DNA of 64,000 bases, counting the filler, from Kipferlia bialata (taxonomy: Eukaryota), in NCBI GenBank assembly GCA_003568945.1. It is 6 parts of 6 records of this genome, joined end to end, with 100 filler letters (N's around TTAATTAATTAA, not from the genome) between each part and the next. Parts side by side here need not be neighbours in the genome. Positions count along the whole stretch, not along the records: positions 1 to 10,001 come from BDIP01000919.1; positions 10,102 to 23,766 come from BDIP01000920.1; positions 23,867 to 37,528 come from BDIP01000921.1; positions 37,629 to 51,269 come from BDIP01000922.1; 2 more parts are not named here. The stretch is one strand, 5' to 3'. Each line of letters begins with the position of its first letter. The stretch's first letter is position 1. The translations under genes were made by a program, and so were the position numbers. Shown here piece after piece: positions 236 to 50,900 of the stretch. Below the pieces are notes generated by a model. It was not told where the DNA came from, searched no databases, and saw only the letters and a program-made list of their open reading frames with translations.

Positions 236-3072
236 CCTTTTTTTTCCCCCCCCCCCCCCCCCCCCCCTCTCTCTCTCTCTTCCTCTCACCCTCACCCTCC
301 TCTCTCTCTCTCTCTCCCCCTCACCCCCAGCTGGCATGGAGAGGAGTATCCATCTCTATCTTCCTCTGCTTATTATATACTATATCAATTAGTATTTACC
401 TTCCCATGTTATATAAGGATATGTAGTCCAACTATTATTCGTACTCCTCTCTCTCTCACCCCCAGCTGGCATGGAGAGGAGTCTCTCTCTCCCTCTCTCT
501 CTCTCTCTCTCGTTATCTCTCTCCCCCCCCCTCACCCCCAGCTGGCATGGAGAGGAGTCTGTCCAGACGCAGCAGGGGGAGCAGGTGCGTATGTATATAC
601 ACATGTTTATATAGATGGAGTTATACTGATAAGCTATAAATGGGGTTTAGTGTATTACTTAGAATATCAGCAGGGGGAGCACGTATGGCACTCCTTAGAT
701 AGATACGTCCTCGTGTAGTCTTTAATCATACCTTGCTCACTCCCAGACCCAATCTGCGCACCACTCCAGTGCCCAGGAACAGCAGCCTGTCACTGTCAGG
801 TAATACAATACACTTTTGGTGTTCACTCCCATTTATTATCATATATGTTATACTTGACATATACACTGTAAGGTTAAGATGCACACTTAGCATAACATTT
901 TGGTTCATTTTCGGCGTTTCTATATGGATTACAGTAGTGCATTAATATGTGTGTATTCCTGACCCTTAGGCTGGCGTGACAGGGAGGCCTCCAGGGTGGA
1001 GAGAGAGAGGACGAGGGACGGACCAATCTCTGTGGAGCAGGTGCAGTTCACATTGTATTTAACTACCTATTGATATACAGTATATATATGTATATGTGTG
1101 TGTGTATGTCTGATTCTCTCTGCTAACTCTAGGACCGCACCCAGAGCCAGTACGAGGAGCTCCTCAGCCCCCTGAGTCCCAGGGACATCACTAATCCAAT
1201 GGAGGTGGGGTTGTGTGTCACACAGTGTAGTCATTCATGTACTATATACTGATATATGATTGTTCCATACCCTCACCCCCAGGTCATTGCTAACACCCCT
1301 CCCAAGGGGGGCAAACCCCGCACCCCAAGGTAGGAATCAGTATGAATATCACAATACGCACACCACGGTCATTATAGTATATTTTTTGTACTTTAACACC
1401 AAGGCGTGATAAGCCCCCCACCGAGGGTGTTGTCTCCCCCTCTGCTGCCAAGCCCAACAGCCTGGTGGCAGAGTACAAGCAGAGGATGGAGGAGCTAGGT
1501 ACATGATATATATATACCTACACTGACTGAGTGTATATATGTTGGTTCTATTTTACATATACTTGACCCTCAGGTGTGTATGAGGACAACACTGAGGACG
1601 AGCTGTCCATTTACGTATACTATATATATATATACTCTCCATATATATATGTAAATATGTATATATATATACCTCACCCCAGGTGACTATGAGGATAATA
1701 CTGAGGACGAGCTGTCCATGTCTGTATCTCCCTCTCTCTCTCTATAGATATACCTCACCCTCAGGTGTCTATGAGGACAATACCGAGGACGAGCTGTCAA
1801 TGTCTGTGTCCATCAGTGAGGACGAGGGCGAGGGGGACTCAGTCCCGGCAGCATCCCTAGGGGCTCAGGTATATTTAGATATATATATATAGATATACCT
1901 GCCTGTGTAAGTATGGACCATATCCCATATCCCATATCACTCTTCGCCTCTCTCTCTCTATGTATGTATCTCACACCCAGCCCAGCAGGCCAGCCAGTGG
2001 CAGACCCACCAGCAGTAGACCTGCCAGTGGCCGCCCAGGTAACCATTATATTATTCATATATGTATGTACTGTTCTAGTGTTACTGATGTGTCTTCTTAT
2101 GCATAGGCAGTGGCCGCCATTGCAATACACACATATGATACTAGTTTCAACATATATATGTATAGTATTTGTCTGATGCATAGGCAGTGGCCGCCCTGGC
2201 AGCAGCATGGGAGGTAGACCCCTCTCTGGCAGACCACCCAGTGCTAGGCCAGGCAGTGCACTCAGGCAGAGACAGGTATGGATTGTATACTATTATATTT
2301 CTTGAATTCCTTGTATATTGTGAATAGTGTATAGTGAATCAAGATATACATACGTTGCCACTGCACTCAGGCAGAGACAGGTATGAAGTAATTGCATAAT
2401 ACATAAGTATCCACATAAATCTCATAAATTGTGATTACATTTATATTATTCGTGTCCATATATAGCTGACCCCAGCCTGAGCCCGTCCCTGAGGCAGAGT
2501 CCCCCGAGGTCATTGCAAAGGTATTGGTCAATATATAGTAGATATACACTGAGTCTATAGTCATTCTGTATGCAGTTCTGTATTATATACCCCTAACCCC
2601 CCAGGCCAAGTCCACTCTCAATACAAATATACCATAGATGCTTAATACTATTCTTTTGTATTATTATATATTGTATGATATACTATACATACCCCTAACC
2701 CTCCAGGCCAAGTCCACCCTCAAGCCCATCAGAGACAGGGAGTTCTCATCCAAGGTATATGCATATATGTATGTGTCTTCTACTTGTATTGGCCTTACAG
2801 CCCTGTTATTTACACTGTATTTATGTCTACTTATATATTCGTATATTCTTACCCCAGAGTCCCATTGTCAACATCACCCCTTATATATACTGTTAATAGT
2901 TTCATTACTATTAGTATTATATATACAGTATAATACCATATATTCTAACCCCAGGGCCCCATTGTCAACATCCACGGAGGGTACCCCACCATGACTGAGA
3001 CAGAGGACGATGACAGCATGGATAGCTGTCCCAGTGCTAGGTATAGTATATATACAGTATATATATATAGGC

Positions 3073-3125
<53 letters not shown>

Positions 3126-6100
3126 AGCATGGACAGCTGCCCTAGTGCTAGGTACTATATACATACTCCCTTTCTCTCTCTCTCTTTCTCTTTGTATATA
3201 TATGTATTTATTAGTAGTATACATTGTTAACCCATCAGGAACGTCCCCCGCAGTGCCGGTCTGAGACAGGCCCACAACGCATCAGGCATCCTGTCTGACC
3301 TTGACCTAGACGAAGGGAAGCACACCGACCACTCTGACCACTATGAGGAGTTCAGCGATGGTGTGAAGGAGGGAGAGAGAGAGGGTGTGCAGCCAAGTGC
3401 CAGGCTGGAGTCTGTGGTTGAGAGTGACGAGGAGACCGAGGAGGAGGAGAGCGAGAGGGAGAGAGAGAGTGACTCCGAGGTGGACGGTATCCCTCGCCTC
3501 TCAGACGATGAGGAGGTCTCCATCCACGATGCCTCCATCGCCAGTGAGTACGAGAAGGAGAGGGAGAGTGGGTCAGAGGGTGATGTCGATGTGCTGTCTG
3601 CTGTGGAGGAGGATGCTGTGGGTGTTCCTGAGGAGGGGGAGGAGGAGGAGGAGGATGTGTACCGGCCCTGTGTGTACTCAGAGCCAGAGTACTACGAGGC
3701 ACCGCAGCCTGAGGTGGTGGAGGAGGATGTGGTGACTGCCACAACTACCACTGCCACTACTGCTGCTTCTCCTGCTACTATTGCTACTGCTCCTGGTACT
3801 GTTTCCACTACTGCTGCAGCTGAGCCCTCTGCAGATGAGTATGCTGATGAGTTTGGTGATGAGGAGTCCTCTTCCCACCACGACTCTACCCCTGAGGCAG
3901 AGGCAGAGGCAGAGGCAGAGGCAGAGGCAGGTGTTGATGCTGCAGAGAGTGTGGTAGAGAGTGTGGTTGAGGAGATCAAGGAGGATGTCTCTGAGGTGGA
4001 GGTGGAGGAGGATACCCTCGAGACCCTTGACGGTCTGGACGCCCCTGTTGACACCACCGATGCAGTGTGTGAGGAGGGACAGGCTGAACAGGCTGAGTCC
4101 GGTACCAGCCTCGAGGTCTCCATCTCACCTCCTCTCTCTGATGCTGAGAGTGATAAGGGTGCAGCACCAGCCGTAGTAGAGACTGTGCTTGCTGAGGCTG
4201 CTGAGCAGGCTGAGTACGGGTATGGAGATGAGTTTGACGAGGAGGAGGAGGACGATGACACCTTTGTCAGGTCCAACCAGGCCACGACTCTCCTCTCTAG
4301 TGCCTCAAGACCCACCTCCCGCACCTCTAACCACTCCTCTAGTGCCTCTAGGCCTGCCTCCCCCGCCCCCCCTGCCACTCTGCCCTCTCCCTCCCCTGCC
4401 GTTGTCAACCCTGCATCACCACTGCCAGCCACACCCACTGTAGGTAATGAGACTCTTGTATACATTCATATACTTCTTTGTATGTACTATAGATACACAT
4501 ATTGTGTACATGTTCTAATGATACTATGATACTATGATACTGACTACTCTGCATCGCCACTGCCAGCCACTCCCACTGTAGGTAGTGTAGCCATAGTATT
4601 CCTTTATACCATAATACTATAATCATCCATATATAGAGATTATTCTGATGTGAAAGATCTTCATTTAGTCTAACTGTAGGTGTGACTGCCGATGCCCAGC
4701 AGAGTGGCACCAGCGGCACTGAGAGTGAGGCTCAGACATGTGACGCCACTCTGTTTGAGAAGGTGGCCAGTGCAGTGTCAGACGCATTTGACAGTGAGGT
4801 AGGATTGCATGTGTGTATATATACTCAGCATATATATGTTCATGAGAATTGTTGTGACTCTCTGATTCTAACATTGCAGGACAGCGACTCTGCCCGCTCT
4901 CAGGCTATATATATCTATATACCTATTTATCTATCTATGCAACTACAAACACCCTAATCATTCAGGACGGCGACTCTGCCCACTCCGAGCCTGCCTATAT
5001 ATATATGTATATATTCATATATGAATAGTAGTCTCTATTAATCTACACATCATATACTTACCACCCAGTCCTCCCACTCCGACGCTGCCCCTGAGGCCAA
5101 GGTTGAGGAGGAGACTGACAAGGAGAGTGAGAGTGAGGTTGTGATTGCCCCTCTGGACTCTGACAAGGAGGAGGAGGAGGGGGAGGATGTGCCTCTGGAG
5201 ACTGAGGAGGTGTGTGAGTCTGCCGCTGCTCCTGTCATTGAGAGAGAGAGAGAGAGAGAGAGAGCGCGCGAGAGTGAGAGAGAGAGTGAGGCCGAGGCCA
5301 GTGACAGCATCGTGCTTTCCTGTGACGAGGCAGACAATGCCGCACCTGCCCCTGTCCCAGAGGCAGAGTCTGAGGCAGAGTCTGAGGGAGAGAAGGATGT
5401 AGAGGTAGATGTCGAGACCAAGGCTGAGACCGATGCCTCCTCTGATGGTGAGGTCGTTGCAGAGACCGAGGTTGAGTCTGAGAAGGAGGCTGAGGTTGCC
5501 GAGTCCTCATCTGCTGAGGAGGAGGAGACTGAGGCTGCTGAGGAGGCCCAGGTCTCAGAGCCTGAGGTGGTTGCAGGGGCTGAGTCCTCCGAGTCAGAGT
5601 CCGATGCCGCTGAGGCTGAGGGTGAGGATGTGGTTGATGAGGCCTCTGAGTCTTCTTCTTCTGATTCTGCTCTCGAGGGTGAGGCTAAGGTTGAGTCTGA
5701 TGCTGAGTCTGAGGGGGAGGAGAGCAGTGCTGCCGAGGAGGTGGTCGAGGACGCTGCCACTGAGGTTGTCCAGGAGTCTGAGAAGGAGATAGAGAAGGTT
5801 GAGGAGGTTGAGGAGGAGGAGGCTGCTCAGGATGAGGCGAGTGAGTGTGAGTCTGAGTATGACACCACTGCCCCCTACATCCCGTGCACATACACCCACG
5901 TGGGGGAGGGGGAGAGAGAGGAGGTAGTCGATGTCGTCGAGGCTGACGTTGTGGCCGGCGTGGTTGATGAGGCATCCGACGTTGCAGAGGACGTTGCCGA
6001 CGTTGCAGAGGACGTTGCCGACGTCGCTGAGGACGTGGCTGAGGAGTACTCTGACTTTGAGGGTGATGGTGCCATATCCTCTGAAGATGAGAAGGGGGCA

Positions 6101-6367
6101 GAGGGAGAGGGAGAGGCAGGGGGAGAGGGAGAGGCAGAGACAGAGACTGTGGCTTCCGCCATCATGGGATTCATCCCCCCTGAGGAGGAGAGAGTGGAGG
6201 CAGAGGAGGAGGGAGAGAGGGGAGAGAGAGGAGAGAGAGGAGAGAGCACCGACCCCGTGACTGTGTTGGACACCGTCACAGAGGGTATTAAGGGTGCAGA
6301 GGGAGAGGCAGAGAGAGTGATGGGAGATGTTGAGCTCTCCGACGTTGGATCGATCTCTGACATGTAA
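69..6367 (+). CDS. Large multi-exon, disordered Glu/Asp/Ser/Pro-rich protein, 5' part outside window, unknown function
   Basis: GT-AG exons splice in frame (GMERSLSRRSRGSR-PNLRTTPVPRNSSLSLSG-WRDREASR...-VYEDNTEDELSMS...). Two long acidic exons (~3239-4442, ~5069-6367) end at TAA 6365-6367. Confidence 0.7.
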
Positions 6368-6465: not shown

Positions 6466-7151
6466 TCACTGAGCCGCCCTCTTTGCAGGGGTTTCCAACA
6501 AGAGATTGACGGGTTCTCTCTCTCCATCCTTCATAATCTCTCCATCTCTTGCATGGACTCTGTAGCATAGTAACTCTCTCGCTCTCATAGCATCCCTGTC
6601 TCTCCGCCTGACACCCTTAGGCAATGGCGCAACCCCAAACAGCACCCCAGTGTGTGTGTCTAAGTTAACCCCTAGAGCCGCGTCCAAGTGTATGGGTAGG
6701 TCATCCCATCTGGACCAGGCACGTGACACAGTGTCATAAGCATGGCAGGCACTGAGGATTAGACTAATACCATTGATATATATACATGTGTGTATGTGTA
6801 CATTGAATACAATATATCATCGGCATGGCAGGCACTGAAGTGAATTAGAGTAATACCATAAGTATACACCAATGTATAATATATACAAATTGACACAGTG
6901 TCATAGGCATGGCAGGCACTGAAGTGAAAAGAGTAGGTGCACACAATGGGTATATATTTATAGAGAGAAAAGTAGTGAGATATAGTGAGATATAGGAGAT
7001 GGGAGGGGGAGGGGGGGTGCATATAGGCAACCAGGAGTGCTATATATATACATACATGTATGTACATGCATACATATATATACCTCTCATGATCCAGCCC
7101 ACCAACCACCAGTATGTACTGGCCGATACTGAGAACGCCAGGGCTGTATGC
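6466..7151 (-). CDS. C-terminal exons of a kelch-like repeat protein
   Basis: Exon 7084-7151 (AYSPGVLSIGQYILVVGGLDHE) joins the exon starting ~6752 (SACHAYDTVSRAWSRWDDLP...). This gives the kelch hhhhGG...YD....W pattern. Confidence 0.65.
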
Positions 7152-7365
7152 CTATTGTCAGGGGTGGGGGGGGGTGCAGAGATAAGAGTGAGTGAGACAT
7201 AATCCAAAATAGCTACTAAACGAGGTGAGGAATAGAATGGGATGGTCAGCACTGCGAGAGGGGAGGGGGGGGGGGGGGGGGGGAGGGATGCCCTCTCAAA
7301 GGAGAATTTGTTAAAGCTAAAGAGAGAATCCAGGATATTCTCATAATCATAACAAAGATTCTTAC

Positions 7366-8726
7366 CTCAAATCCGTCATGACTGCTCCCGTTGCCGGAAC
7401 TATCAGTGGTGAATGTAACTGATGTCAGCTATACAATTCAGTGTATATGGAGTATACTCAACATATACTGTGTATAAGAACATGTATTGAGCCACTGTAG
7501 GAACTGTCAGTGGTGAATGTAACTGGAGTGAGAAGGGAGAATGAGAGAGAGATAGAGAGCCAGTAGAGGTGTAATTCGACAATATCTACTTCTATAGCAT
7601 ATTCTACGCATCTCCATCCTCCCTTCACTTTGTCACAGTGGTGTATATACATTTGTGATATGATACTACTACACACATTTCAATTCACGTATAACGTACC
7701 TATTACAAACACACACACATATATATATATATACACATACAATATAGGCACATAGGTTAATATAGGACATACTTACTACACAGAAGTCTGAGCCCATGTT
7801 GATAGAGAGGGTCTCACTCAAGTATATATACCTACATACATATAGTAGTAAGATTATATACCTATAACACAGACGTCTGTGAGTGAGTACCAGTCGATAG
7901 AGAGGTCTCACCCAGTACTATATACATACACATAGATATTCATACATATATATAGGAGATGGACAGAGTTATATATACCTATCACACAGACGTCTGTGAG
8001 TGAGTACCAGTCGATAGTCAGGGTCTCAGATAGGTCACCGGAGTATGTCTGGACTGAGTATAGAGTGACATCTATAAAGTGATACGGAGAGAGAGAGAGA
8101 GAGAGGGAGAGAGAGATAGAGTCTGAACTAGTTCACCAGAGTAGGTCTGAGGTAGGAATAGATTAAGAGCAAGAGAGAGACAGAGAGAGACAGAGAGAGA
8201 GTGTCTCGTAAGACTGAATGCATAGTTACTCACCTCGATCAGCGTCGCGTCGTTTCGTCGTATGTATAAGTTCTAATTATATAATACATATATGACACTT
8301 ACTCACATTGATCAGCGTCGCGTCGTAGCTTGAGCACTCATTAGAACTCCAGGTACTCTGAATGTTAGAAACAGAGAGAGATATACATATTATAGAGATA
8401 CAAACAGGGAGAGAGAGAAAGAGAATAGAACTCCAGGTACTCTGGGGTTAAAGAGGAAATATAGATAGATAAAGAAATTGAGAGTCTGGGGTTAAAGAGT
8501 AAGACATATATGGATATATAGATAGAGACATAGAACATAGGAAGATACAAATAATTGCAGACGAGAGAGAGAGAGTCGCCTCAATTCCCAACACTTCTCT
8601 ACATCTATAGTAAATACCTTGTAGACCGTTATCTTGTCCCATGATGATTGAACCTCTCCTTCTCCCTCTCCATACATCTAATCTTGCCGTAGCCTGACAC
8701 AATCTCACTCACTCTACCTCTCTCTC

Positions 8727-8766
<40 letters not shown>

Positions 8767-9944
8767 GTATGAAACCCTCGCAGACCCTGATCTTGTCGTA
8801 GCCTGACTCAATCTCTCCGGTGATATAGTATGTGACCCCAATATATAACAATATATAATATTATATAATAATAGTATAAAACAACATATAACAATATATA
8901 ATAATAGTATTATAGAGTACTAGTACCTGGTACACTCTGATCTTGTCCCAGCCTGACTCAATCTCTCCATCGATGAAGATAGTCAGCACGTCAGGGGCGG
9001 GGTAGGGCATGACTACCTGGTGTTTGTATGTATACTAGTATATGTATATAAGTAAATACATATAATGTGATGTGCATGATGAAGATAGTCAGCACGTCAG
9101 GGGCGGGGTAGGGCATGATGACCTAGCATTAGCATATATACTAGTATATGTATATTAGTAAATACACATATAATGTCAGCTGGTCTGGGGCGGGGTATGG
9201 CATAACTACCTGGTGTTAGCATACATACAGTATAAGTATAGTAGTATATACATATATCATAGATTGCGATGTGTATGTCAGGGGCGAAGTAGGGCATGAT
9301 GACCTTATGTTATGCAACATCTATCTATCTACTTATATACAATACATATGTATTTAGCCAGCACCTCAGGGGTGGGGTAGGCATAATGACTTATTTGAAA
9401 CTATCCTATACATATATTCATATAATATACGATAGTATGTATTAATACTTATATATATGTACATTATACAAATATAGTAAGCAGGTGACGAGTAGGGTAT
9501 ATAGAGAGAATACAAACACATGCGTACTCAATACATGTGTATAGCTGTGTATGTTCAGGGATATATATATATATATGTCCATGTCGACATAGGCATCATT
9601 GTATCATAGTAAATAATGGAGTATGTATACTATTCATATCTACTTCACAATATATCATGTATGTTCAGGGACTCACCCACTCTTCGTCCATGTAGTTGAT
9701 AGACTACTTATATACACAAATTATACTATGCAATTATCTTCTATCTCAATCTATATATCAATATCATATGGAACACTCACCCACTCCTCGTCCATGTTGT
9801 TGACATACTCATCAATGAATCATAGTGTATAATTACTATTCATATCTACTTCTCTATATAATGGAGTATCTGTCACATACCCACTCCTCGTCCATGTTGT
9901 TGACGTAATCATCATCGTCAACTGCAAAGGAACCGCTGAGACCA
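7366..9944 (-). CDS. CUB-domain-containing protein fragment (5 exons)
   Basis: Exons give ...DDDYVNNMDEEW / VVMPYPAPDVLTIFIDGEIESGWDKIRVYQ / STWSSNECSSYDATLIN / TYSGDLSETLTIDWYSLTDVCVI / VTFTTDSSGNGSSHDGFE. These match the CUB motifs Y.NN...W, E...D...VY and F.TD.S...GF. Confidence 0.7.
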
Positions 9945-10460: not shown

Positions 10461-11207
10461 TTACTCTAGGATAGATGCTATCTGCAGTACTAGTGTCCTT
10501 CCACTCTGGAGCACAACACCCTTGACCCTGTCACCAACCTGAGAAGTGAGTAAGGGGTATATATATAGATACATATAGATACATATAGATACATATAGAT
10601 ACATACGTACATACCACACGCATGACCCTGTCACCAACCTGTATATAATACATATACACCATATCTATATACCTTCAGTGCCTTCAATGGAGACATGCCC
10701 AGGTGTGCATCTGTCACTCCGATATATATACATATACTATGTATATACACTATGGATACTACACTATACTATACCATACATACCTTCAATGCCTTCAGTG
10801 GAGACATCCCCAGGTGTGCATCTGTCACTCTGGCTGGGAAGGGGGAGGACAGGGGGTGGAAGTCAGTCTCTAGAGGTTAGCAAATGTATATATGTAATAT
10901 TCAACAAGAGTAACCCGTTCTCAGGGTAATGATCATACATATATATATATATATATATATAATGATAAGGGGGAGGACAGGGGGTGGAAGTCAGTCTCGA
11001 GGGGTTAGTAATCTCTTCACAGCCTCATGGGTATATACTGAAAGAGTGGGGGGTCAGAGGTATATGATACGTACAGGACATGGATAAAGGGGGGGGTCTC
11101 TCTCTCTCTGTATATTCACGTATATACTCATATACATGCGTGTACTATGCTATACCTGATGGGTTCTCCACATTGGGCCTGAGGAGTGCAAAGACAGACA
11201 GGGTAGC
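10461..11207 (-). CDS. 3' exons of a protein ending in an S1/OB-fold-like segment
   Basis: In-frame splice ATLSVFALLRPNVENPS-ETDFHPLSSPFPARVTDAHLGMSPLKALK-VGDRVKGVVLQSGRTLVLQIASILE*. 'LKVGDRVKGVVL' is S1-like. Confidence 0.5.
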
Positions 11208-11864: not shown

Positions 11865-13237
11865 ATGTCACCCAGTGATGACGCTGTGGTTAGCACGGCA
11901 TGCTGGGATGAGGAGGGGGACACCTTGCAGAATGTCAGAAGGATAGGTGGGAATATTGAGGATGGACTCTCTCTCTTCTGTCTTCCTTCCACCTACCTCA
12001 CCCCAGTGTTCATCCTTGGGCAGAGTGTGCCTGAGGAGAGAGAGATTGATGGTCTGGACCCTTCTTTCATACATGTCAAGGTGACGGTGGGGGGGGAGGT
12101 GGTAGGTATCTATGTATCAAGTATCTTCTGACATTGAATCACACTCGGTGTTCAACCACCTCTGATATATGCTCTCTTCCTCTGATATATGCTCTCGTCC
12201 TCTGATATATGCTCTCTTCCTCTGATATATGCTCTCTCCGTCTCTCTATTACTGCATGTTTCTCCTTGCTTCCCTTCATGTCTCTCTCCACCCCAGCCAC
12301 CGCTAGGATGGACGCACTCTCTCTCTATCTGTCTCTCTGTCTCTCTCTTTCTCTCTCTCTCTATCTGGGTTTCCCTTGCTGTCCCTCCTCCTGCCTCCTC
12401 TTAGGAACGGCCAGGATTGACCCCCTCTCTGTATCTCTCTCTATCTTAGTCCCTCTCCATGTCTCTCTTACTATACCCCCCCCCCCATCCTAGGCACTGC
12501 CAGGATGAACCCCCAGGATGGACACATTGGGAGGGTGGCTGTGCTGGCAGGGTACAGGGGCAGAGGTTATATATATGCATACATTCTACAGTAGGTATTA
12601 GTATAAATATGTGTATGAGAATGGGAGGTTGGCTGTGCTGGCAGAGGATAGGGGCAGAGGTACTTCATGTGTATTATACATCATATTCTATAAAGTCTAT
12701 TATTGATGGATATTCGTAGATATAGGCCTAGGTAAATTCGGGTTTGGGTAGTCTGATAGTGGTACCGATATTCTATACCCTCCGTTGCCCCCTACGCTCT
12801 GTTCCCACACTGACATGCTGATGCATTTCTTTGTTGGATACTATCTATTCACATTGTATTCGGTCACTTTCTCCCCCAGGTCTTTGGTACACACAAATAT
12901 GTGTAATATCTAGTAGTATGTATATTTCTTGTCTTGATGCTCCATAGTCAGGTTGTCTATGTGCCCTTCCTCACCCCCAGGCCTAGGCTGTATGCTTATG
13001 CAGGAGCTGCACCGCCAGGCACATGCCCTAGGCCTAGACCACACACACCTCAGCGCACAGCTCACATCTGAGGCCTTTTACTCATCACTCGGTGGGGGGT
13101 GCATAGAATTACTTGTTGTATACTTCACCTGTTTACTCGATAAGTCAACTGCGTCTAATACAGGGTATGTCCGTGCCAATGATCGGGTGTTCCTGGATGC
13201 GGGTATGGAACATGTTGACATGCACAGGAGGGTGTGA
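11865..13237 (+). CDS. GNAT N-acetyltransferase, ElaA/YjcF-like, 5 exons
   Basis: MSPSDD...VRRI-VFILGQSVPEEREIDGLD...GGEVVG-TARMNPQDGHIGRVAVLAGYRGRG-LGCMLMQELHRQAHALG...LSAQLTSEAFYSSLG-YVRANDRVFLDAGMEHVDM. Contains the acetyl-CoA-binding R.RG.G motif and the FY..LG and F.DAG..H..M signatures. Confidence 0.88.
12159..12236 (+). repeat. Intronic tandem repeat, ~4 x 20 nt (CCTCTGATATATGCTCTCTT)
   Basis: Directly visible. Confidence 0.85.
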
Positions 13238-13959
13238 GAGGGGGCTGGTGACTGTATCTGCCAGGCATACCTGACCGTATCAATGCCACATAGCCCATGT
13301 GTCAGACCCAGTGTCACCACGTAGCTCTAGGCCAGTTGTGGTACCACTCAAATAGGATGGCTTCCTCTCCCGTCGTTGCAGGCCACTCTGAGTTGTATTC
13401 AGTGTACAGTGTCTCTGGTGCATCAATGCACCATGGGAGGAGATGTCACTTACTACTATTCTGGCAATGTATGCTCTCGACGTCGGCTCTTCTCTCTCTT
13501 TCTATGAGTGCTCAGGCATAGCTCTGAAGTGGAGAGGGTCTCGCTTAAAGGCCGGGAAACAGCATGAGTGGGTGCTTTGGGTTTCGACCTGAATGGGCAA
13601 TGTAGTATGATAGATAGGCCAAAACAATTGAGTTACTTCTATTATCATAATTTAGTGGGAGAGACCACCATTTATATTGTGGTTATTCATGTTGGGTCCT
13701 GACTCAGACACCGCCAGGCCAGGTCTACCTGAGGTATACCCTTGCCGTGAGATACAAACACCAAACCCTTATGTGTACCAAGTATCATTATCGTCTCGGC
13801 CGTACGGATTCCGGATGATCTTCTTGTACTCTATTGAACAGGGACCTCTATTGCACAGCGTAAGGTGAAATATATAGTCTATAACCAAATATATCTGGGA
13901 GTGGACAAATACAACTACTTCCCCATATATAGTGCCATTTGCCTCTCTGGGCTATATAT

Positions 13960-16900
13960 CTATGCCATCTGGTGCATGTGTGCCAGGTCCTGGGAGTGTT
14001 GTACTGCCAGTGCCCTGGCCCTGTCCCTGGCCAGGGGGAGGGCATGCTCTATCAGCACGGGGAGGTATCTGGGAGGGTCAGAGGGATTGCTTACAAATGT
14101 GTATGGTGTGAGAGTACACGCACACTATCCCACCTGTCAGCCAGCTCTGTGAGCCCCAGTGTGTCGAGGGCCTCAATCTCACAGGTGCGGGAGGTCTAAG
14201 GTTAGAGGTTACTGTGGAAGACTCACACGTAGTGTAGGGCAAATATATGCTATATATACATACAGCACATAATTATCAGGAGCTCATATGAGATATCTTG
14301 TACAACTCCACTATCACACAAAGACATATATAGGTATAAAGTCGACATCTTGTAAACTATATACCCTCCCCCCACCTCCATCATATCCCTGATGGCCAGA
14401 TATACTCACATATATAGACATATACGTACACAGTTGGCATCTTGTACAGTATACCTCCATCATATCCCAAATATACAACTCCACAGTATATACCTCCATC
14501 ATATCCCTGAGGGCCCCTGCCAGTATCTGGTTGACAGCTGGGGGCACGGGCATCACTGGTGTAAGAAGGGGGGAATGATGTGTAGTGATTGTATATATAC
14601 ACTTATGAACAATGTACGGTATATGACAGCTGGGGGCACGGGCATCACTGGGGTGAGAGATGGGCATATATATATATATACATATGGTAACATAGGGTAT
14701 ATATCAGTCCCTGACGTACTCTGTGCCTCGTCCAGCTCCTCCCCCTCCACTCTCCCCCTGGCCCTGTCCATGGCTCTCTCCAGCTTCCGCAACTCCACCC
14801 GGGCTCTCTTACGTCCCCTGTGGGTGAGGAATGAGATCACACTAGAGGTGAAGTGACACATGCCATGTATTGCTATGTATGCAATGGAGTGTATGCACCT
14901 GTCACTGAGTCTGAGCCATGCCCCGTCTGACACCTGGGCTCTGTAGGTAAAGGGCGGGAGACCAGCACCACTGTCATCAACCTGGCAATGAGGGGTATAT
15001 GTAGTGACTATTGAAAAATTTGAGTATGTGAGTATCGGTGGTGTACATATGGTAGGGCTCCTATCTGCATACCTGGCATGGGAACACCCCTATGGGTATG
15101 AGAGAGGGGGCGCAGGCAGGGATACCCATCACCTGCAGGGTGTGCTGGACCTAAGGGGTCAGAGGGCATCACAAATACATGGAATACTAGATATATTGCA
15201 TATACCCACCTTGTGTGCCCCCTTCATGTACTGCAGCAGGATGCTCACTCCATATGGGTCTGCATCGGCCAGGCCTAATACAGGCACACCGGCCCTGGGA
15301 GTGGGGGGGTGGGAAGAGTGTGGGAGGTGAGGAGGTATATACAGGTGTGAGATTGGCTATCCTCTCTCCCATACCTAGCCAGCCCAGCAACCATAATCTT
15401 GCTAAGGGTGTCAGGGAAACCCTTGCCTGGAGGGTGAGTGTGTGCTATGCATAATGATAGAGTCTATTGAGAGAGTGCACACAGCACTATATCACTCCAA
15501 CCTGTGACAATATACTATGTATGCTATATCACACCTGTGAGCAGTATGATGTTGAGCCTAGTACACAGGTCCCTGTGGACCAGTCTAGAGAACACAGTGT
15601 CCTTCTCTACCTGGGGTGTAAGGATAAGTACAGAGAGATGTGGTTCCAACAGCCATCTGTCTATGACACACACTACTATAGATCGAAAGTGACCAATTCA
15701 TATAATATGCGTTAGTATATGCACTCACCACTAGCACTGCGTCTGCCCGAGTCTCCATCCTGTGGAATGACACGAGGTCTGCTGTGATGCACAGGGGGAC
15801 ACCGGGGGACAGGTCGATGTAGCCAGAGGCAGTGGGGCCTTAGGTCAGAGACTACTCTAATGATGCACCTACAAACAGACAAGCCAAAGATGTAGTGTAG
15901 ATACGTATATTCAGATATATATGTATAGATATATGTACATACGTACAGTGAAACCTGGCGTTCCCGGCTATGAGCCCCTTTGCAGTGCATGTGATGCCCA
16001 GACAGTGTCTAGGGACACGAAGGAGGGCCTCAAGCAGACTGAAGGTGAGACACTACATAAATATACATAGTATATATACAATATATATATGAGTATACAC
16101 CCCCTCACTCTATGGCTGTTGTTGCCATGGACTGTGTCTGGAAGATGTCCGGCCTCTGGTAGTAGAAGGACCGCTGGGTCCTGACAGTGCCCGAGGAGGG
16201 GGAGAGGGGGTTGGGGCTAGGCCTACTAGACTGGAGGTGGGGGCGGCCCTCTCTCTTGGGCACAAGCTCCCCAGGCTGCCTGCCCCCACTCTCATTCATG
16301 GGTGGGTAGAAGGGGAGGGACGGGTCCATGTACCTGGGGGTGGGTATGTGGATCAACCTGTCAAGAGAGTAGGGTGTACATCTGGTACATAATGTAATGT
16401 GTAAATGGGTATGAGTGTGTACCTCGACTGACTGGGTACTGGACACCTGTCCCTGTCTCTGTTGCACACCAGGTTCTCAGTGACGCTGGCCATCACAGAC
16501 ATCAGAGACGCATACAGCCTGGGGGGGAGAGGGGGGATGAGGGAGTGGTGAGAGTGTGTGTTTGAATATATATAGTATACAGATGACCCACCTTGATGCA
16601 TTGCTGTTGGTGCCCCACCGTGCCCCACTCTCCCTGTCCCTCAGCCTCCGTCTCTCTCTCCTGGCCAAGGCCTCGCCCTCTCCCTCTTCCCCGTTCCCAT
16701 ACACCTCCCCTTCCTCTCCAGGGCCAGTGTCAGTACCAGTGTCTGAGGGATAGGACACAGCTGGGATGAGAGAGGGGGGGGGGGTAGGGGGGTAAGAGAG
16801 AGACTTGAGAAAAGTGATATGGGCACATGATTGCACACAGAGAGATGAGTAGAGGTATCACCCCATGGCTACCTGGGAATGAGGGTGCCTTGGGACTGGG

Positions 16901-34838: not shown

Positions 34839-37528
34839 CTATGTCTCTCTCTCCCTCTCTCTCTCCTTTCCCTCCCCTGGGGTGTCTCTATCGAGGGTTG
34901 TGGCAGTCCTGATACTGGACCCAGCGTCCATGGTGAGACGGGGTCTGATGCGGGCCTGAACATTAGATAGGATGCCATCGTGTAGAAACTGAGTACAGAG
35001 GTCTAACCTTGATGCAGTTTCCCACTGCCCCCCCGACCTCTGAGCCCAGTCTGCTACTTGCATGGGGGTCGAACACCAGACACTCCCCAACACCACAGTG
35101 GGAAAGGGATAGCAGAAGGGAGGCACTAGGGTGGGTACAGAGTTCCACACGTACTCTCTATATATATGTGTGTGTGTATGTGTATATATTAATAGGAACG
35201 TACCTGTCAAGGCCTAGATGCAGACTCTTGCAGAGGTGGCTGGCCCAGGTGGGGCTGAAAAACCTGTATAAGTGTGTGACACTCATACAGTAACCAATCT
35301 TGAATAATTATCATTGAAGTCCAGGTGAAGAGAACGCTGAGGACTATAAATTGAATAACCAAAACACATTGGTCAACAAGTAGACTATATAAAACCAATA
35401 AATCGTACTTGTGCATCACTGCGAGGGAACAGAGCTCTAGGAACTCTCTGGGGATATCCGAGGGAGACTGGGTGGAGAGGACAACCCTGGAGTCAGAGAG
35501 TGACTGTCTATTCCCGCGCCACTAGTGAAAGGATGCATGTGCACATGCGAGAATATACACGCATACATATAGTCTACACCAACCTGCACCCGCAGTGCCT
35601 CATCTGGCGCACAGTGGTGAGGAGGGTCTTGCTGAGAGGGCCTGGCCCATTAGGATAATATATATGGAAAGGCATCACAATATACAATGCGTGATCACTG
35701 GTGAAGTGGCCTCCCTCCCCCGTATGGACAAGCAAACCCAGACTGAGAATACTGACACACTCCACCCATGTCCTATGTCCGTACCTTCGACCTGTAGGTA
35801 CTTGTGTGCCTCATCCAGCACAAGCAGCTTGTCATATGTGGCATGGGAGCCAACAAACAGCTGGGACACTGCGGTTAGAGACTTGCACAGAAATGCAACC
35901 AAAGTAATAATGACCATACACATCCTGATATCCCTTCTGAACACACGCATACCTACACTGAATATGGCGTTAGCGTCCTCGGGACCCAGTAAGGGGTCGG
36001 TGAGGTCACATATCACTAGGGACCCTGGGGTTAGGTGAATGAAGTGTGAGTACAACTAAAACAGAGAAAGGCACTGTCCATCACTATGCTAGAGTTATGG
36101 AGGATGATGACAGAGGAGAAAGAATACGTCCCAATATCATCATTCCCACTTGGGGATGTATATACTTGTATACATATACGTGCGCGCGCAAATACATGTA
36201 TGCATATACCTGGCTGCAGTGACGACAGCAGGCTGATACAGGATGTGGCATTGTGTGCTGTACTCTCCTTGTTGATGTCAGACTCCATGACAAGGCCTGG
36301 GGTCACCAAAGAGATTACCACACCAAATTCACTATGCGTACTGCAATCATGTGTATACCTGCACTAATGTCTGGAGTATACTATACAGGGGATACAATTC
36401 CCATTTACATGTATACATATATATACATGTGTCTACTCTACTTGCCAGCATGTCCACCCTACACTAATGTCTAGAGCATCTAAATTACATCAAGAGAACA
36501 CTAGACTATACACAATGGAAACTGTATTCATGTGTGCATACCTGCCAGCATGTCGACCCTCTGCTGCAGGGGCTGCATCTGGGCAGGGGTGAAGCCAGCA
36601 CTGACAGTGAGAAGACTGACTACCAGTAGAGAGTAAGGAGGGACGGTGCACTAGTCTTCATGTGGGAGGCAATACCCACTTTGTGATGAGTGTATCATAA
36701 ATATTAAACACACAAACACATACTTTGCGATGAGTGTGAGAAAGTCCGTCCAGGTCGGTCTGCGCCCTGAACGCTGGACCTAGGGTGAGGGTAGAGTATA
36801 CAAGAGAGGAGAGATTGGATATACAAGAGGGATGTTGGAAGACATGGTTATCCATATACACCTCACCCTTCTGAGCAGTGCCATGAGCACCCCCTCGTAT
36901 AGGGGCACCTTCCCACTGTCCAGACCCATCAGCATCCTGAGGTAGGAGGCATCCAGGTCCTCAAAGGGGAACAGAAGGGGGTGGACCTGGAGTGAGGAGA
37001 CACACTTTGAATATAGAGATTACCTACTTGGAAAGGCACTACCAGGACCAGTACCAGACACACCCACATCTATACAAGTATACAAAGGAAACCATATACC
37101 TGAACGTTGGGGAATGAGCTGAAGAACTGCTGCCTCTGCCTGTAGTTGTGGGGTGAGACCAGCACCACACAGGGTGATGCCACTACCCCTGCTGCCCCTA
37201 CTAGGCCAAGGCCTATGCTCTCACAGTAGTTGACCTGGGGGTGGGGGAGGTGCGGACCTCACTATTAGCAATATTGTGGAGTCGGGGGGGGGGGGGGGAT
37301 AGAGTGTGTCTCACCTGGGTCCTGTCATATGAGCACACGAGAGTGACCATGTTGGTGCCCCTGAAGTAAGGGTGGGTATAGAGAGTGAATATATATAGGA
37401 CATAGAGTGGGGGTGATATGAATCTGGTCGCCAAATACATATTAGTGTACGCACTGGGTGACAGGAGGACATGTGAGCATGCATGACTCCACTATGCTGT
37501 TGAGGGTGTGGCTCTTGCCACTGTTCTG
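34839..37528 (-). CDS. P-loop ATPase of the HerA/FtsK/VirB4-like superfamily, multi-exon, 5' truncated
   Basis: Walker A QNSGKSHT (37505-37528), ICDLTDP, Walker B LLVLDEAHKYL (~35795-35828), VRQMRHCGCR, VSTQSP, MH-RFFSPTW, and C-terminal RPRLTMDAGSS. Confidence 0.82.
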
Positions 37529-43433: not shown

Positions 43434-44875
43434 ATGAGTGCGTCCAACACCCCCAGGAGTCGCCACACGGCGGCTGGGAAAAGCGCCTTTGTCATCATCT
43501 CAGAGCGAGACAACCGACGTTATAGGTTACTGGTCAAGGAGAGGTATGCAGCAGTATTGTTATATCAGTCTCTAAGTCTGAGTCAGAATTTGACTGCACT
43601 CTCACCCCCCAGTGCACTGCCCATATTGAAGATTAGCAGCATCAAGAAGAACCTTGCCAAGAGTGCGGGCATCCCCCCCCATGTGCAGCAGCTGTATCTG
43701 GCCACAATGCCTCACAGAGAGCTAGGTGACACTGTGGTTGGGAGGGAGTACGGCCTGTGTGGGGGAATGGAGCTGATCCTCCGTATCAAGGGGGACCCTG
43801 TGAGGGAGAGGGCGACTCCCCGAGTGAGTGGGTCTGTGGGCCCTACCTCCAGCACCCCCTATGTGGGTGAGGGCCAGTCCCTGCCTGCCCCCATGCCCAT
43901 ACCCAGAGGGGTGGCATCGGAGAGGGTGCAGCACAGAGAGAGGGAGAGTGTGTCCAGGGAGAGGGGGTCTGGGCGGGTGGCCGACTCATACATGTCCAGG
44001 GGTGATGGGTACAATGCCATGAGGGAGTTCTTCTCCCCCTATCCTCAGCCATCAAGTGCGCAGAGAGAGAGGGAGAGGGAGAGGGAGAGCCCCCAGGTAG
44101 GGGTGTGGCCTGAGGGTACCGTTGGGGGTCAGAGCATGGGGAGGGACCAGGGTGAGAAGGGTCCCTACCGGGTGTCCCAGTCTGGGGAGAGAGAGAGAGA
44201 TAGAGGCAGACAGGGCCCGCCCCTTCCCTCCCTGCCGCCCCAGACCAGACAGACAGAGAGGTACCAGCCACCCCTGCCACCCCAGAGGGAGAGGGACAGG
44301 ATGGGAGAGGACAGAGACCCCTACTCCCACCTCCCCCCTGCTGCCTCTGACACACCCCTGTCGGTGTCACAGTTCACAAGGTCTAGGTAGGGAGTGTTCG
44401 CATGAAATCTACTCTCTCTTTAGTCCCCCCCCCCTCCCTTACTCTCTCTCACTATCTGTATTGTCTGATATTATATACAGACTTAGTATCCCTCCCATGA
44501 GCAGGTCCCAGTCTGTGCAGCCTGGTGACCTTCTCTCTCTCTCTCTCTCTATCCCATATATTATATTCGTGCTCATGCCAGGTCCCAGTCTGTGCAGCCT
44601 GACCTTGTCTCTCTCTCTATCCCATATATTGTATACTATACATATTACACCCACCCAAGGTCCCAGTCTGTGCAGCCTGGTGAGCGGGGTGCCTCCACCG
44701 TGCCCTCCCTGGAGTATGCAGTGGCCAGGCTGACACAGTCCCTGGCATCGGCTCAGACACAGCTGGCACAGGTATGGTAGATGCATATGTATATGTATAA
44801 ATGTATATATATATATATGTGTGTGTGTGGTTACATATCCCTGGCATCGGCACAGACACAGGTGGCTCGGGTAGA

Positions 44876-44911
<36 letters not shown>

Positions 44912-46930
44912 ATATATGTAAGCATAGGACATCCTCCCTCCCTCGCCCTCAGGAGCGCATAGCCGCTGCCTCCCAGACCGACTCTCTCTGTCTCTGTCTC
45001 TATCTCTATCTATATATATCTCTCTCTCTATATGTATTTATACATGGATGTCTCATCCCCAGGAGCGTATGGCCGCTGCCTCCCAGACGGACTCTGCCTG
45101 TGTTGAGGCATCTGAGACACAAAGGAGACTGAGTGCAGAGTACCAGCAAGTGGTGGCAGACCTAGGTACTAATCTCTATGTATATGTGAGTATAAATATA
45201 GAGAGAGTAGCTATCTGATCCCCAGTGACCCAGATGGGCAAAGAGGACATGAGTATTGTCGATATATATATATAGATTACCTCTCTCTGATACCAGTGAC
45301 CCAGATGGACAAGGAGGAGAGAGAGATGGAGGCCCGGCATAGGGGGGAGAGGGAGAGGCAGCAGAGGCGCCTGCAGAGGGAGGGTGACGAGAGGGCAGAG
45401 AGAGAGAGGCAGAGGGAGAAGGCGAAGGCTGAGGCAGAGAGAGATGCCGCCAAGCTCCACAGAGACGTGGCACTGCTCGCATCGGCCATGCAGGTATGAG
45501 GCTGAAGTATCTACATCTATATACTATACATATCCGAATCTATATCTCTGCCCCACTCCAGGGTGTGCGGCAGGAGGCTGCGAGGGAGAGAGAGCGTCTG
45601 GAGCGGCACTACGACCAGGAGAAGGCGTCTGTGGTGGATGCCCTGAGGCTGAGGGAGGAGCAGCGGCAGAAGCTGCGGGACACGGAGAGAGACAACCTGA
45701 GAGACAGGGGCAGAGAGCACGAGCTAAGAGTAGGCCTGGCGGTGCTGAGGCAGAGGGTGAAGGAGAGGGAGGAGATGTGCAGGGCAGTGGAGGGTGGCCT
45801 AGGGGATGTATCCCTGGTGGATGACGGGCAGGATGACGATGTGATTGTGACAGCAGAGGGGGTCAGGGAGAGGCTGGTGGCCGAGACACACCGCAAGAAC
45901 GCCATCCTGGATGCACTTGATAGAGTCCTCGGCCCTGTGCGTGTGTATGTCACACTCAGACACCTGGGCAGTGGCATTGATGTTATTGACTCTACCTCTG
46001 TGGCTGTCAATGGGGTGCCCCTGAGTGTCACGGGGGTGGTCAAGCCTGCTGCCCTGACGGCACCCAATGTGCACACCATAGTGCGCCCTGCCCTGACAGG
46101 TGGGTACATCATATAATCGTACTACTATATATACTACTCAATGCTACTATACATCTGTATATACTGCCACTGATACTCAGGTGGGTGCACCATCGTGTGT
46201 CTGGGCCCATCCAGTGGGGGCAAGAGCCACCTGCTGTACGGGGACCCCTTCTCCCCCTCCCACTCCCTGCCTGGCCTTGTCGAGCTGATATGCGCAGAGG
46301 CTCTGGGTGAGGACATGGGTGGGTCCAGTGGGGTGGACATTGCACCCCTGGGGGACAGCGAGAGGGGTGCTGTGTGCGTGCTCTCTCTCTCCCTGGGTGT
46401 GAGGGTGGGTGGCGCCATGATCGACCTCTTGTCTGATGATGCTGAGGCCAAGGTGCTCTCCCCCACCCTCCCCCCCTGCGGTGACCCCTGTGTGAGTATG
46501 GAGGGGGTCAGGGCCAGGTTGAGGCAGGGGCTGAGCCGGGCAGAGGCCTACGAGGCTGAGGGTCTTGTATGTAGAGTGGCTGTGCATGGGAGAGACTCCT
46601 TCACCAGGGTGACCACTCTAGTGGAGATGAGAAGTCCCACCCCCTATCTGTCTGACACCCTGGCTGCACTGGCAGGAGGGGAGGACCTCCCACCCGCCGC
46701 ATGCGCCTCTGGGGAGGAGGCCTGGCTGGGACTGGAAGGCGCAGACAAGGTATATATGCCCATCACATATATATACATATATATATACCCGTAGATACTA
46801 CTCTCTAACCCTTCAGGTCATTGTGCTGGCCATGCTCAGCCACGATGCCTCAGCCGGGGGTGCTGTGGCAGAGGTGGTCAAGGCCATACCTACTGTGCGT
46901 AATGTGGCCATCAGAGACCTGGGGTTGTAA
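43434..46930 (+). CDS. Ubiquitin-like domain + coiled coil + degenerate C-terminal kinesin-14-like motor domain
   Basis: UBL: ISSIKKNLAKSAGIPPHVQQLYL...LGD...EYGL..G.EL.L. E/R-rich coil, then neck-like ILDALDRVLGPVRVYVTLR and P-loop CLGPSSGGKSHLLYG. Stop at 46928-46930. Confidence 0.68.
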
Positions 46931-47821: not shown

Positions 47822-47857
<36 letters not shown>

Positions 47858-47902
47858 ACTCATGTATACATACTTATACCTCACTTCCTTCGCTCACATC
47901 CA

Positions 47903-50900
47903 GGTTGGTATGACGGAGATCAGAGAATCCGTGTTCGAGTGCATCTCAACGACAAAAGGCCCCAGTGGCTACTACACCTTCACCCTTCCTGCTCAGTGTG
48001 AGACTGGATGCGCGGCCCTTACACTGATATCCAACAGGCACAGAAAGGTATCAGTATCAGTATCATAATAGTATAAGTATACAGATACTGATACAGATAC
48101 TGTTGCTGATACCCTTACAGTGCTCTCCAACAGCCACAGAAAGGTATCAGTAGCAGTACATAGCATATAGTATTACCTTATACATACTCATACTGATATA
48201 GTATATTGTATACATATACTGATACTGATACTGATATAGTATATGCTGTATACAGTATACATATACACATACTGATACTTACTCTGATAGACAGGATCTG
48301 CCCCCCTCCCACGATGGTACGGGGTGGTCGCTTGCACGTATACTCGTGGAGAGTGACAATGTCACTGGCGAGCCCCGTATCGGGCTTGGAGACTGGCTGC
48401 CTGACCACAAAAGGGCGGGAAAAGGTATCAGCGTACCCAAGATTGTTGGTCATGATGTATACACATATATAGGTAAGTGACAATCTGTGTCTGCTTATCC
48501 CACTGACTATCAATCTGTATCTGATTATCACAGATACCCTCCTGCACCGGCTAAGTGGCGATTGCCGTGATGCCATATATACTGACAACACGGTGGCCAC
48601 CTGGGTTGTGGGGCCGTGTATGTACTGCTTCTGCTACGGTGACCAGGTATACATACTATACACTACAGTCATGCAATCAAGAGGTAGTGTATACTATACT
48701 TGGCTTGTATACATTGAGAGAGAGATGGAGATTATGATATGCTACGGTGACCAGGTATAATACTCAGTAGTATAGTATACAATAGTAGCATATACCCATG
48801 TATAGTTTGTTATAATACTACGCTCATACTGCTACGGTGACCAAGTATATGTACTATGTATATACACTATATGTATACTCTCATATTATCAAGAGATAGC
48901 GCATACTATACATTGCATGAGAATGTTGAGAGGGAGAAAGAGAGAGAGAAATGCAATGGTATCCACTATATCGCTGGGTGATACTGTCCCCCCCCTTCTA
49001 CCACCAGATGATGGAAATTCTCTCTCATGTATGCTATGTATTATCAGAGATACGTTTCTTCCTAGATTCCGATACTGTATGACTCAACCCACCCTCTAAC
49101 ATACGTAGATGATGCACATTCTATCCCTTGACGACCATGTGTGGAGGGACGTCCCCATGACGGCAGGTATGTGTACAACGATAGGAAGTATGATACAGAG
49201 AGCGGGGGAAGTCCCACAATGACAAACATCTATATCTGTATGGTGATATGACATGTGATGATATATGAATTACTTTGGTATATGAATAGTGTCAATGTAT
49301 GTTCGCTCTATAATATATATACATATACTATACATCACTGCACTATGTATACTATATATTGTGCATACATTATATATATCCCACTACTGTCCCTAATAAG
49401 CAGAGGGCCTGGATCCTGGGTACATGAATGTCACTTGTGTGCTAGAGGGGAAGTTGGTCCTCTATGGAGGTATGCACATATGTCAATATATACATATATA
49501 CATGATTGAGGACAAAATGGATAACAAATTAACGTGCATATGTATATGCCCGTGATATAAGTGGTTGCTCTTCTACGGCTACTACTCTATCTAACCCATA
49601 TTCCTGTCTCTCTCTCTCTCTTTCAATGGTCTCTATGTATATGAATTTTGAAGATATATATGTGTGTATGTGACTCTAACTATCCAGGTACCCCTCTTTC
49701 CGAGGCTGACATGGCCCGTGATCCCAGGTTAGAGCAGGTATTACGCTATCAAGGATATAGCTATATATAAATGTATGTATATATATTGGACAAGTTCCAC
49801 ATTGTTACGGGTGAACACATACTGTATACTATATACATTATTTACTATATATTCATATCCTGGGATGTATAGGTGTAATAATTGATATATAGGTATTGAA
49901 ACCCCTGGATGGAGGGGTAACCTACCTTCTAGGTATATATGAATGGAGCATTGAATCGTCAGTAGGAGAGCTTTGTCTCTCTCACACACACACACACCCC
50001 ATATATATCTATGGATATGAATAATACACACTGTAATGTATATGTATGTTTGAGTATATATATAGATACTGATATACACTCTTGTACTACCCACCCAGGT
50101 CAGTGGGAGAGACGACTCCTATCGAATGTGGGTATTTGACCCAGAGAGAGAGCAGGAGGGGTGGAAGGTACGTGTTATACAATTATTGAATACAATTATC
50201 AGTATCAACAGAGAGAGAGAGAGAGAGGGAGAGCAGCAGGGTGGAAGGTATTGTGCGATGGTCGTGACATTCTATTGGGACATGGATATTGCGAAGAGAT
50301 AAAGAGAGATGAGGGAAGAGAGAGTATGATGGTGTTCCTCACTGAATTAGTGAGTGACTGTATATATCCGCCACGGCTACCACTCTCGTCTATCATAGAT
50401 TCTATTACCAATGGTAATTTACCATCCCCTCACCCCGAAGTGCCTAACCTGTCCTGTTCCTAAGCTAGCTGTTTCGTCTCTTTGTGCCATGGGAGACTGC
50501 ATCTATGGAGTGACAAAGGAAGGTACGGGTCAAACTGTGCTCCTAGACCAGCATTCCAATCCCTCTGAACATCACCACAATCGATATCTCCTGAGAATGG
50601 TTACTTCACTCTTTTACCTCACCACCAGGCTGTCTCTCTCCCTACCTCTCTATCTCTCTATCTCTTTTTTCTCTCTCTCTGCATATAGATGTTCCCTCTC
50701 TCATCCCCTAGGCATGTGCACCTTCACTTTCTTTTCTCTCTCTCTCTGCAAGTATAATATTCATTGTATATGTACCCTCTCTGAGAGAGTCTCTCATCCC
50801 ATAGGCATGTGCACCTTCACTCTTAGTGCCGGCTGGTCAGGTGGAGACGGTACCATAGTCTTCACCAGACAGCAGAGAATGTCCACATGCACTCCATACG

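Follow-up and report, generated by a model that had tools for sequence, protein, structure and literature searches.

Introns of the free-living protist Kipferlia bialata were analysed in one intron-rich window of 64 kb (the whole stretch of DNA studied, made up of several scaffold pieces), to which all counts given here refer. Many of these introns contain copies of the ends of their own flanking exons. With moderate confidence, and on the pattern of sequence divergence, we propose that these copies once served as exon ends, lie silent in the introns today, and were left by failed recombination between strongly diverged alleles. A total of 68 exon-end copies of 14-56 nt each were found in 42 of 135 introns (31%), which agrees with an initial annotation of this DNA that had reported such "echoes" in many genes on four contigs. 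The copies lie on the four pieces named there, and none was found in the 25 introns of two genes on a fifth piece (51370-60753).

Fifteen gene models were built by hand from open frames and GT-AG ends, giving the 135 introns; an ab initio spliced predictor called many copies as exons, and hand models were used instead. Excluded from the 135 were partial introns at scaffold ends (more copies are visible near 69, 23930, and 24017), one poly-C intron of gene G3, intron 1 of G14, and all genes lying at 41944-43250, 59100-60100, and 60854-64000. To detect copies, each intron was aligned with 80 nt from either neighbouring exon, with a cut-off score of >=24. As a null, exon ends were aligned to introns of other genes; scores of >=24 arose in 0.4% of these comparisons (0.9% for long introns), so that about 1-2 would be expected in 270. 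This exon-end alignment had been proposed in the initial annotation, and all its hits, from a search of the direct orientation, reached the junction.

Number, position, and splice sites of the copies

All 68 copies extend to within 10 nt of the junction that they repeat, and 60 keep the splice dinucleotide, with GT following 34 of 39 donor copies and AG preceding 26 of 29 acceptor copies. All counted copies are direct and adjoin their source exon, the search having covered the direct orientation only. Copies were confined to longer introns: 0/74 under 120 nt, 4/14 at 120-180 nt, and 38/47 over 180 nt. Their periods were 71-150 nt for 66 of the 68, evenly distributed modulo 3 (22/25/21). By exon-end alignment, copies cover at most 70% of an exon; no whole-exon copy occurs among the 68, and donor spacers lack acceptor-like ends. 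Duplication of a whole exon followed by loss of one site was rejected, there being neither whole-exon copies nor acceptor remnants. Recursive AG|GT splicing found no support either, exons ending in AG being 21/26 with donor copies vs 80/109 without.

The copies carry their own valid, strong but different splice signals. Acceptor scores were 4.69 for copies, 4.65 for real sites, and -9.17 for background; donor scores were 1.28, 1.99, and -1.12, respectively, and 5 of 39 donor copies share the hexamer of the real donor. The first 40 nt of introns are richer in AT where copies are present (72% vs 61%), and at the gene level copies and intron AT-richness are correlated (Spearman 0.87). Intron AT by gene ranges from 48 to 65% and follows the copies; it may be a sign of regions where recombination is high or repair is error-prone.

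Repeat scan and alignment recovered the individual echoes named in the initial annotation (331/466, 1574/1683, 3108-3151, 10673-10719, the SPO11 sites, 36442-36460, and 44505/44582/44838/44953). One was miscounted: GCTACGGTGACCARGTA, given as four occurrences at ~48633-48847, occurs three times, also with three mismatches allowed. "Most calpain introns" amounts to 14 of 24, and the word "system" was too strong, as nothing in the analysis shows a function.

The calpain gene allowed comparison with sequencing data. Translation of its 25-exon model gives the 606-aa protein P0002, named by NCBI as Kipferlia bialata calpain; the next relative found belongs to Dysnectes. Two runs of one sample were compared with positions 23867-29200 only, as contigs, which are not single molecules and hide rare forms. 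The DNA run may be the source of the window assembly; the second, which contains a spliced contig, is RNA by guess, not being recorded as such. DNA pieces over calpain showed no differences from the window at depths of 380-457, with unrelated contigs, matched through low complexity, at 239-469. One DNA piece of 2173 nt (26105-28277) from a separate assembly, at depth 443 and also without differences, spans six copies together with real junctions. Among the DNA pieces listed, at least 12 of 19 joins between spacer and copy are bridged by at least 31 nt, and two joins are also bridged by low-depth unspliced pieces of the second run. A 2216-nt spliced contig of the second run, with no differences from the live exons, contains at least five GT-AG joints, four of which cross copy-bearing introns using the outermost sites. 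The RNA mapping proposed in the initial annotation thus found, for calpain, only outermost sites in the spliced contig. The calpain copies are real DNA and are removed from the one mRNA checked via the outermost GT and AG.

Even DNA depth over the modules, together with a transcript using the outermost sites, means that haplotype stacking and bulk DNA excision, both put forward in the initial annotation, fail for calpain. There is next to no chance that an assembler stacked haplotypes: the scaffolds are of gapped short-read style, the DNA run may be the window's own source, and redundancy is hinted at by another record of this calpain, on a longer contig, but the difference-free pieces and bridged joins described above largely refute stacking for the calpain stretch. 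This second record, P0003, has 686 aa, comes from a contig of 26,132 nt, and matches P0002 without a difference along its entire 606 aa; set against the apparently single-copy read depth, it could be a redundant scaffold, a recent duplicate, or a second allele with other introns. Programmed, repeat-guided DNA excision of the modules, in the manner of ciliate pointer-directed elimination, is extremely improbable. By direct reading, each spacer lies between direct repeats, and a deletion from one repeat to the other would bring back a plain junction; however, the modules stand at full depth in DNA contigs, and the search for module-free DNA over the calpain stretch found no repeat-to-repeat joint among 15 of 23 joints, with the proviso that contigs drop rare forms. 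Furthermore, plain GT-AG splicing gives the full calpain protein, so that no DNA excision is needed for an open frame.

Divergence of the copies and their possible origin

Differences between copies and live exons are of the coding type. Over the 68 copies, the proportions of synonymous and nonsynonymous differences (pS and pN) were 0.169 and 0.061, with 90 of 168 differences at third positions and 80 of 168 synonymous, against 25% expected (p 1e-10). For the 48 nearest copies, differences were found at 37 of 879 0-fold and 34 of 213 4-fold sites, a ratio of 0.26 (confidence interval, CI, 0.16-0.41). A copy born identical and then evolving neutrally is expected to give at least 0.5. Simulations of duplication within one allele, detection step included, gave a ratio <=0.264 in 0 of 120 runs at each of five settings (0/600), whereas simulations of two coding copies did so in 32-69% of runs. 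The low ratio persisted without gene G2 and without possible cassette exons; it was 0.11 for calpain alone and 0.46 for the 20 deeper copies. The direction of synonymous changes was uninformative (GC>AT 34, AT>GC 27).

Divergence was also examined by depth in the stacks. For nearest-of-stack, single, second, and third-and-deeper copies (small counts), 4-fold divergence was 0.157, 0.160, 0.176, and 0.286, and 0-fold divergence 0.025, 0.051, 0.062, and 0.177. Of 14 stacks, 10 had a nearest copy that had diverged less than those further in and three showed the opposite, and direct reading showed a stop codon in one deeper copy (27237-27264). A single binomial rate fits copy divergence (chi2 54.7, df 47), with no surplus of near-identical young copies; duplication simulations with exponential ages give such homogeneity in <=1% of runs. 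The synonymous bias, the simulations, and the flat 4-fold with rising 0-fold divergence indicate that both copies were coding while they diverged. The series reads as a fixed divergence at birth plus later decay, with the oldest copies innermost.

Coding-type divergence would also be expected if copies were in use and were kept coding by selection, whether they served in alternative splicing, as cassette exons, or as donors for conversion. Their splice sites are strong, 8 of 68 would yield in-frame stop-free products, and seven acceptor copies have a nearby GT. Nevertheless, we consider use of the copies very unlikely: the other 60 would shift the frame or add a stop, the period modulo 3 is even, the calpain RNA contig skips copies, deeper copies decay, and the ratio is the same without possible cassettes.

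The intron sequence beside the copies had been described as unrelated. This was largely borne out, since in 59 of 62 pairs the flanks of neighbouring copies are no more alike than unrelated introns by alignment score (z<=3), with a median identity of 0.64 vs 0.62; of 68 pairs, 6 had a flank <30 nt and were set aside. The same holds, at z<=2, for 20 of 24 pairs with an exon part <=5% diverged. It did not hold for three alignable pairs, nor for positions 7-12 before the AG, which are alike above chance (0.55 vs 0.34, p 0.003), a likeness limited to the branch-point region. These exceptions would suit an origin by same-allele tandem duplications of ~100 nt across the junction, with fast-diverging TA-rich intron parts and later conversion of the live exon from other alleles, as would the confinement of copies to AT-rich introns, where slippage would be fast, and human F7 intron 7 (IVS7), which shows that an outermost donor can win (PMC1557585). 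We nonetheless judge this origin unlikely. It fails without the conversion step (0/600 simulations), no pair has a near-identical flank (best identity 0.92), and by rough arithmetic introns would need to change at ~40x the four-fold rate. No repeats with periods of 40-200 nt occur in 7.9 kb of intergenic DNA of the window, and of five introns with residual repeats four read as tied to modules. The earlier statement that simple tandem duplication is inadequate is therefore upheld by the unalignable flanks, the synonymous bias, and the simulations.

Spacer length (median 70.5 nt) is the least explained feature. Three of 68 spacers are under 45 nt, against 68% expected, and the lengths fit a whole simple intron minus 10-15 nt (Kolmogorov-Smirnov p 0.48-0.85). 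Copy and spacer lengths are uncorrelated (rho -0.09), which speaks against a fixed tract length. The fit to whole introns keeps alive a renewal pathway, in which the exon end would be recopied with new or ectopic intron-length TA-rich DNA and the old junction would stay behind; spacers also resemble neither their neighbours nor other introns. We hold renewal to be distinctly unlikely, because alone it leaves unexplained both the synonymous differences between copy and live exon and the valid but different splice signal of each spacer, and its enzyme and source sequence are only hypothetical.

The first model of the initial annotation, in which a diverged homologue serves for repair and end joining follows, gives the best fit: the differences are biased to synonymous sites, this bias is constant with depth, the polarity is inward, and the splice-site sequences are separate. 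The individual steps of repair are inferred. A break would fall in an exon, 15-55 nt from the junction, and one broken end would invade the other allele, where only exons are alike, copying 70-150 nt in total, made up of that allele's exon end, its splice site, and the greater part of its intron. The new strand could not anneal to the short, mismatched other end, and end joining of the polymerase-theta type would connect them, so that the imported junction would become live and the old one would shift into the intron as the copy. End joining of two homologues cut at staggered places would give the same product. If copying ran beyond the far splice site, an additional exon would arise and the product would be purged; only products stopping short of it would keep the frame, and thus only these would survive. 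Repeated events would stack copies, the oldest innermost. An intronic break close to the far splice site was also considered and rejected; it explains spacer length but predicts the youngest copies innermost, contrary to the stacks.

An allele is the more likely donor, rather than a paralogue as the initial annotation also allowed, since among other calpains found in the species the nearest shares 37% identity; for calpain, a paralogous donor was rejected on this ground, the other cluster member being identical over 606 aa. The repair genes of the species count as support: K. bialata is listed with PolQ, five Rad52, XPF, and ERCC1 (PMC8516963, Supplementary Data 2), and in the same source metamonads lack end joining of the non-homologous kind (NHEJ), and fornicates are without Rad51A but with two Dmc1. 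The tandem duplications formed in worms by aborted synthesis-dependent strand annealing (SDSA) and theta-mediated end joining (TMEJ) (PMC8654963) are counted likewise.

Several observations weigh against the proposed allelic origin. No second allele is visible, DNA contigs over the calpain stretch showing no other letters; a metagenome scan with calpain for another strain or close relative returned five distant loci (26-61% identity in best segments), and intron-motif scans for relatives gave 0 matches in viral and 0 in prokaryote contigs. Under the model, allelic introns would have to be unalignable at only ~15% four-fold divergence. Three of 62 flank pairs show clear homology, of which two lie at 9078-9209 and the third at 44505-44601. 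The 0-fold/4-fold ratio would likewise be lowered if another allele had later converted the live exon, and the ratio is higher outside calpain (0.36, CI 0.22-0.59) and for donor copies alone (0.31, CI up to 0.62). A random stop with a floor fits spacer lengths poorly (p 0.0002-0.03), so that an added tract-length assumption is needed. Outer copy ends are slightly intron-like, as ~2 nt of microhomology predicts, but this signal, in itself favourable to the model, is indirect, weak, and uncorrected (p 0.013-0.08). Finally, gene models other than calpain are by hand alone, calpain being the one with RNA support.

If allelic repair is the true origin, each copy-bearing intron would be a small archive of past alleles (~13-16% four-fold divergence), and the intron sequences would testify to outcrossing and to a very high diversity in this free-living fornicate, from a group without NHEJ and Rad51A. 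Copying would also be a major route of intron growth here, copy-bearing introns holding 12,551 of the 22,332 bases in modelled introns. The protist has short introns and a reduced spliceosome (87 of 174 proteins; PMC6679479), and in it distal sites are preferred to proximal acceptors of equal strength, a natural test of splice-site choice that points to exon definition or strong surveillance. A bolder and more doubtful generalization is that Kipferlia routinely replaces intron bodies wholesale in repair or sex: exon-end-anchored recombination might install a complete intron and file the old junction inside, much intron DNA would be a time-ordered stack of alleles, and the spliceosome would have to pick the outermost among equally strong sites.

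Features of individual genes

Coordinates are collected in Table 1. In G1, real exons start at 542 (after the copies at 331 and 466) and 1765 (after those at 1574 and 1683), and one ends at 3040, followed by the donor copy at 3108-3151. At 4880-5100 of this gene, direct reading showed two acceptor copies whose start lies three codons upstream relative to that of the live exon (5069), as though versions of the exon had different boundaries, through intron sliding or an indel of 9 nt. In the G2 stack at 9016-9391 (minus strand) two copy types alternate, the first differing from the third at 2/27 and from the second at 7/35 positions. In calpain (24732-24869), the intron reads in frame and stop-free into the 56-nt donor copy, one of eight such cases. 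Possible new micro-exons are seen at the acceptor copies 10613-10638 (minus), 331-347, 45226-45247, and 7500-7522 (minus), each with a GT at an in-frame distance of 15-27 nt. The SPO11-like gene has an open frame over its 15 modelled exons, consistent with retained meiotic machinery. G4, which we take to resemble GNAT acetyltransferases, gave no match in a Pfam search of one exon. Elsewhere, 17633-20600 is a stretch of ~3 kb without modelled introns, with an apparent intronless gene on the minus strand near 19080-20020, and 38728-41539 codes for a protein with a RING and many TRAF/Sina zinc fingers and has one intron.

Table 1. Genes, copy-bearing introns, and exon-end copies in the window.
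Feature	Position	Strand	Basis or remarks
G1, 16 exons, acidic protein	133..6367	+	Hand model, open frame; copies in 10/15 introns
G1 acceptor copies	331-347, 466-487, 1574-1610, 1683-1728, 2107-2124, 2605-2621, 2858-2875, 4975-4995	+	Exon-end alignment
G1 donor copies	668-682, 2359-2380, 3108-3151, 4546-4581	+	Exon-end alignment
G2, 7 exons modelled	6466..9944	-	15 copies in 5/6 introns
G2, four stacked acceptor copies	9078-9391	-	Two with alignable intron flanks
G3, 3' part	10461..11207	-	Hand model
G3 donor copy	10673-10719	-	Differs at three sites, each read directly as synonymous
G3 acceptor copies	10613-10638, 10967-10997	-	Exon-end alignment
G4	11865..13239	+	Donor copy 12622-12659; weaker acceptor copies near 12297, 12407
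SPO11/Topo VI-A-like gene, 15 modelled exons	13960..16923	-	Pfam PF21180 on two exons
SPO11-like donor copies	14376-14397, 14455-14468	-	Exon-end alignment
SPO11-like acceptor copy	14624-14647	-	Exon-end alignment
Calpain, 25 exons, 606 aa	24080..31417	+	P0002; spliced RNA contig; PF00648; 23 copies in 14/24 introns
Calpain intron	24732..25054	+	Donor copies 24814-24869 (55/56 identical), 24924-24946; RNA joint 24729>25053, one GT-AG intron
Calpain intron	26061..26407	+	Donor copies 26135-26157, 26216-26251, 26318-26339; RNA joint 26058>26406, one intron
Calpain intron	27052..27500	+	Donor copies 27128-27155, 27237-27264, 27313-27337, 27398-27425; one DNA contig with real donor
G9 intron	36297..36541	-	Donor copy 36442-36460; exon-end alignment
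G13 introns	44387..45296	+	Acceptor copies 44505-44528, 44582-44601, 44953-44991, 45226-45247; donor copy 44838-44870
G14 introns	48048..50804	+	Donor copies 48112-48143, 48740-48754, 48829-48844, 50224-50247; acceptor copy 50712-50728
Internal control, two genes, one kinesin	51616..58940	+	Shorter, less AT-rich introns; copies in 0/25

Comparison with known systems

Two familiar arrangements share features with the Kipferlia introns. Tandem exon duplication with mutually exclusive splicing gives exon-like intron copies with a synonymous bias, and the pointers of ciliate internal eliminated sequences are direct repeats around removable DNA. Unlike mutually exclusive exons, Kipferlia copies are partial, one-sided, and skipped in the major calpain RNA contig; unlike the ciliate sequences, the calpain modules are present at full depth in DNA contigs, in which rare forms are not visible.

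No published description of this pattern was found in full-text searches, which covered few subscription papers. The K. bialata genome paper reports 124,912 GT-AG introns, and the passages of it that were available do not mention exon-end copies (PMC5874029). The ingredients are known from the literature found; copies at such a frequency, with coding-type divergence and with spacers the size of whole introns, are absent from it.

A close likeness in form is human F7 IVS7, a 37-bp minisatellite across an exon-intron border, in which donor copies downstream of the real site are potentially functional yet silent and the most upstream site is used (PMC1557585). In Kipferlia the repeat units likewise span the border and leave silent pseudo-sites (68/68 with the junction, 60/68 with GT/AG). 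F7, as described there, is one locus in which the whole unit, intron part included, is repeated, whereas in Kipferlia 31% of introns are affected, at donors and acceptors, with unrelated spacers (59/62) and coding-type divergence (0.26). Intron gain by segmental duplication (PMC3265369) is similar in that duplication is tolerated because splicing removes the extra copy. It differs in that Kipferlia introns lengthen with no new intron position, the copies lying inside introns that use their own far site.

As regards mechanism, SPO11 double cuts in the mouse germline give duplications and inter-homologue joins, with end joining of homologues or chromatids at nearby breaks producing tandem duplications with short microhomology (10.1101/2020.06.23.168138), a route that might apply to Kipferlia as well. 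Unlike the Kipferlia copies, the mouse events are rare (~2e-5 per genome for a hotspot pair in Atm-null animals), kb-sized, and not tied to junctions (10.1101/2020.06.23.168138).

In Caenorhabditis elegans helq-1, brc-1 mutants, aborted SDSA is finished by polymerase theta end joining into tandem duplications: the extended end fails to anneal, is joined, and duplicates the copied part (PMC8654963). A similar step is proposed here for Kipferlia, whose copies are also direct and head-to-tail and for which PolQ is listed. In the worm the template is the sister, the copies are identical, and sizes are 100 bp-10 kb (median ~1 kb) (PMC8654963), whereas Kipferlia copies have periods of 71-150 nt (66/68), appear diverged from the start, and are fixed in a natural genome, filtered to junctions. 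The SDSA/TMEJ scheme would thus fit Kipferlia only with a diverged template.

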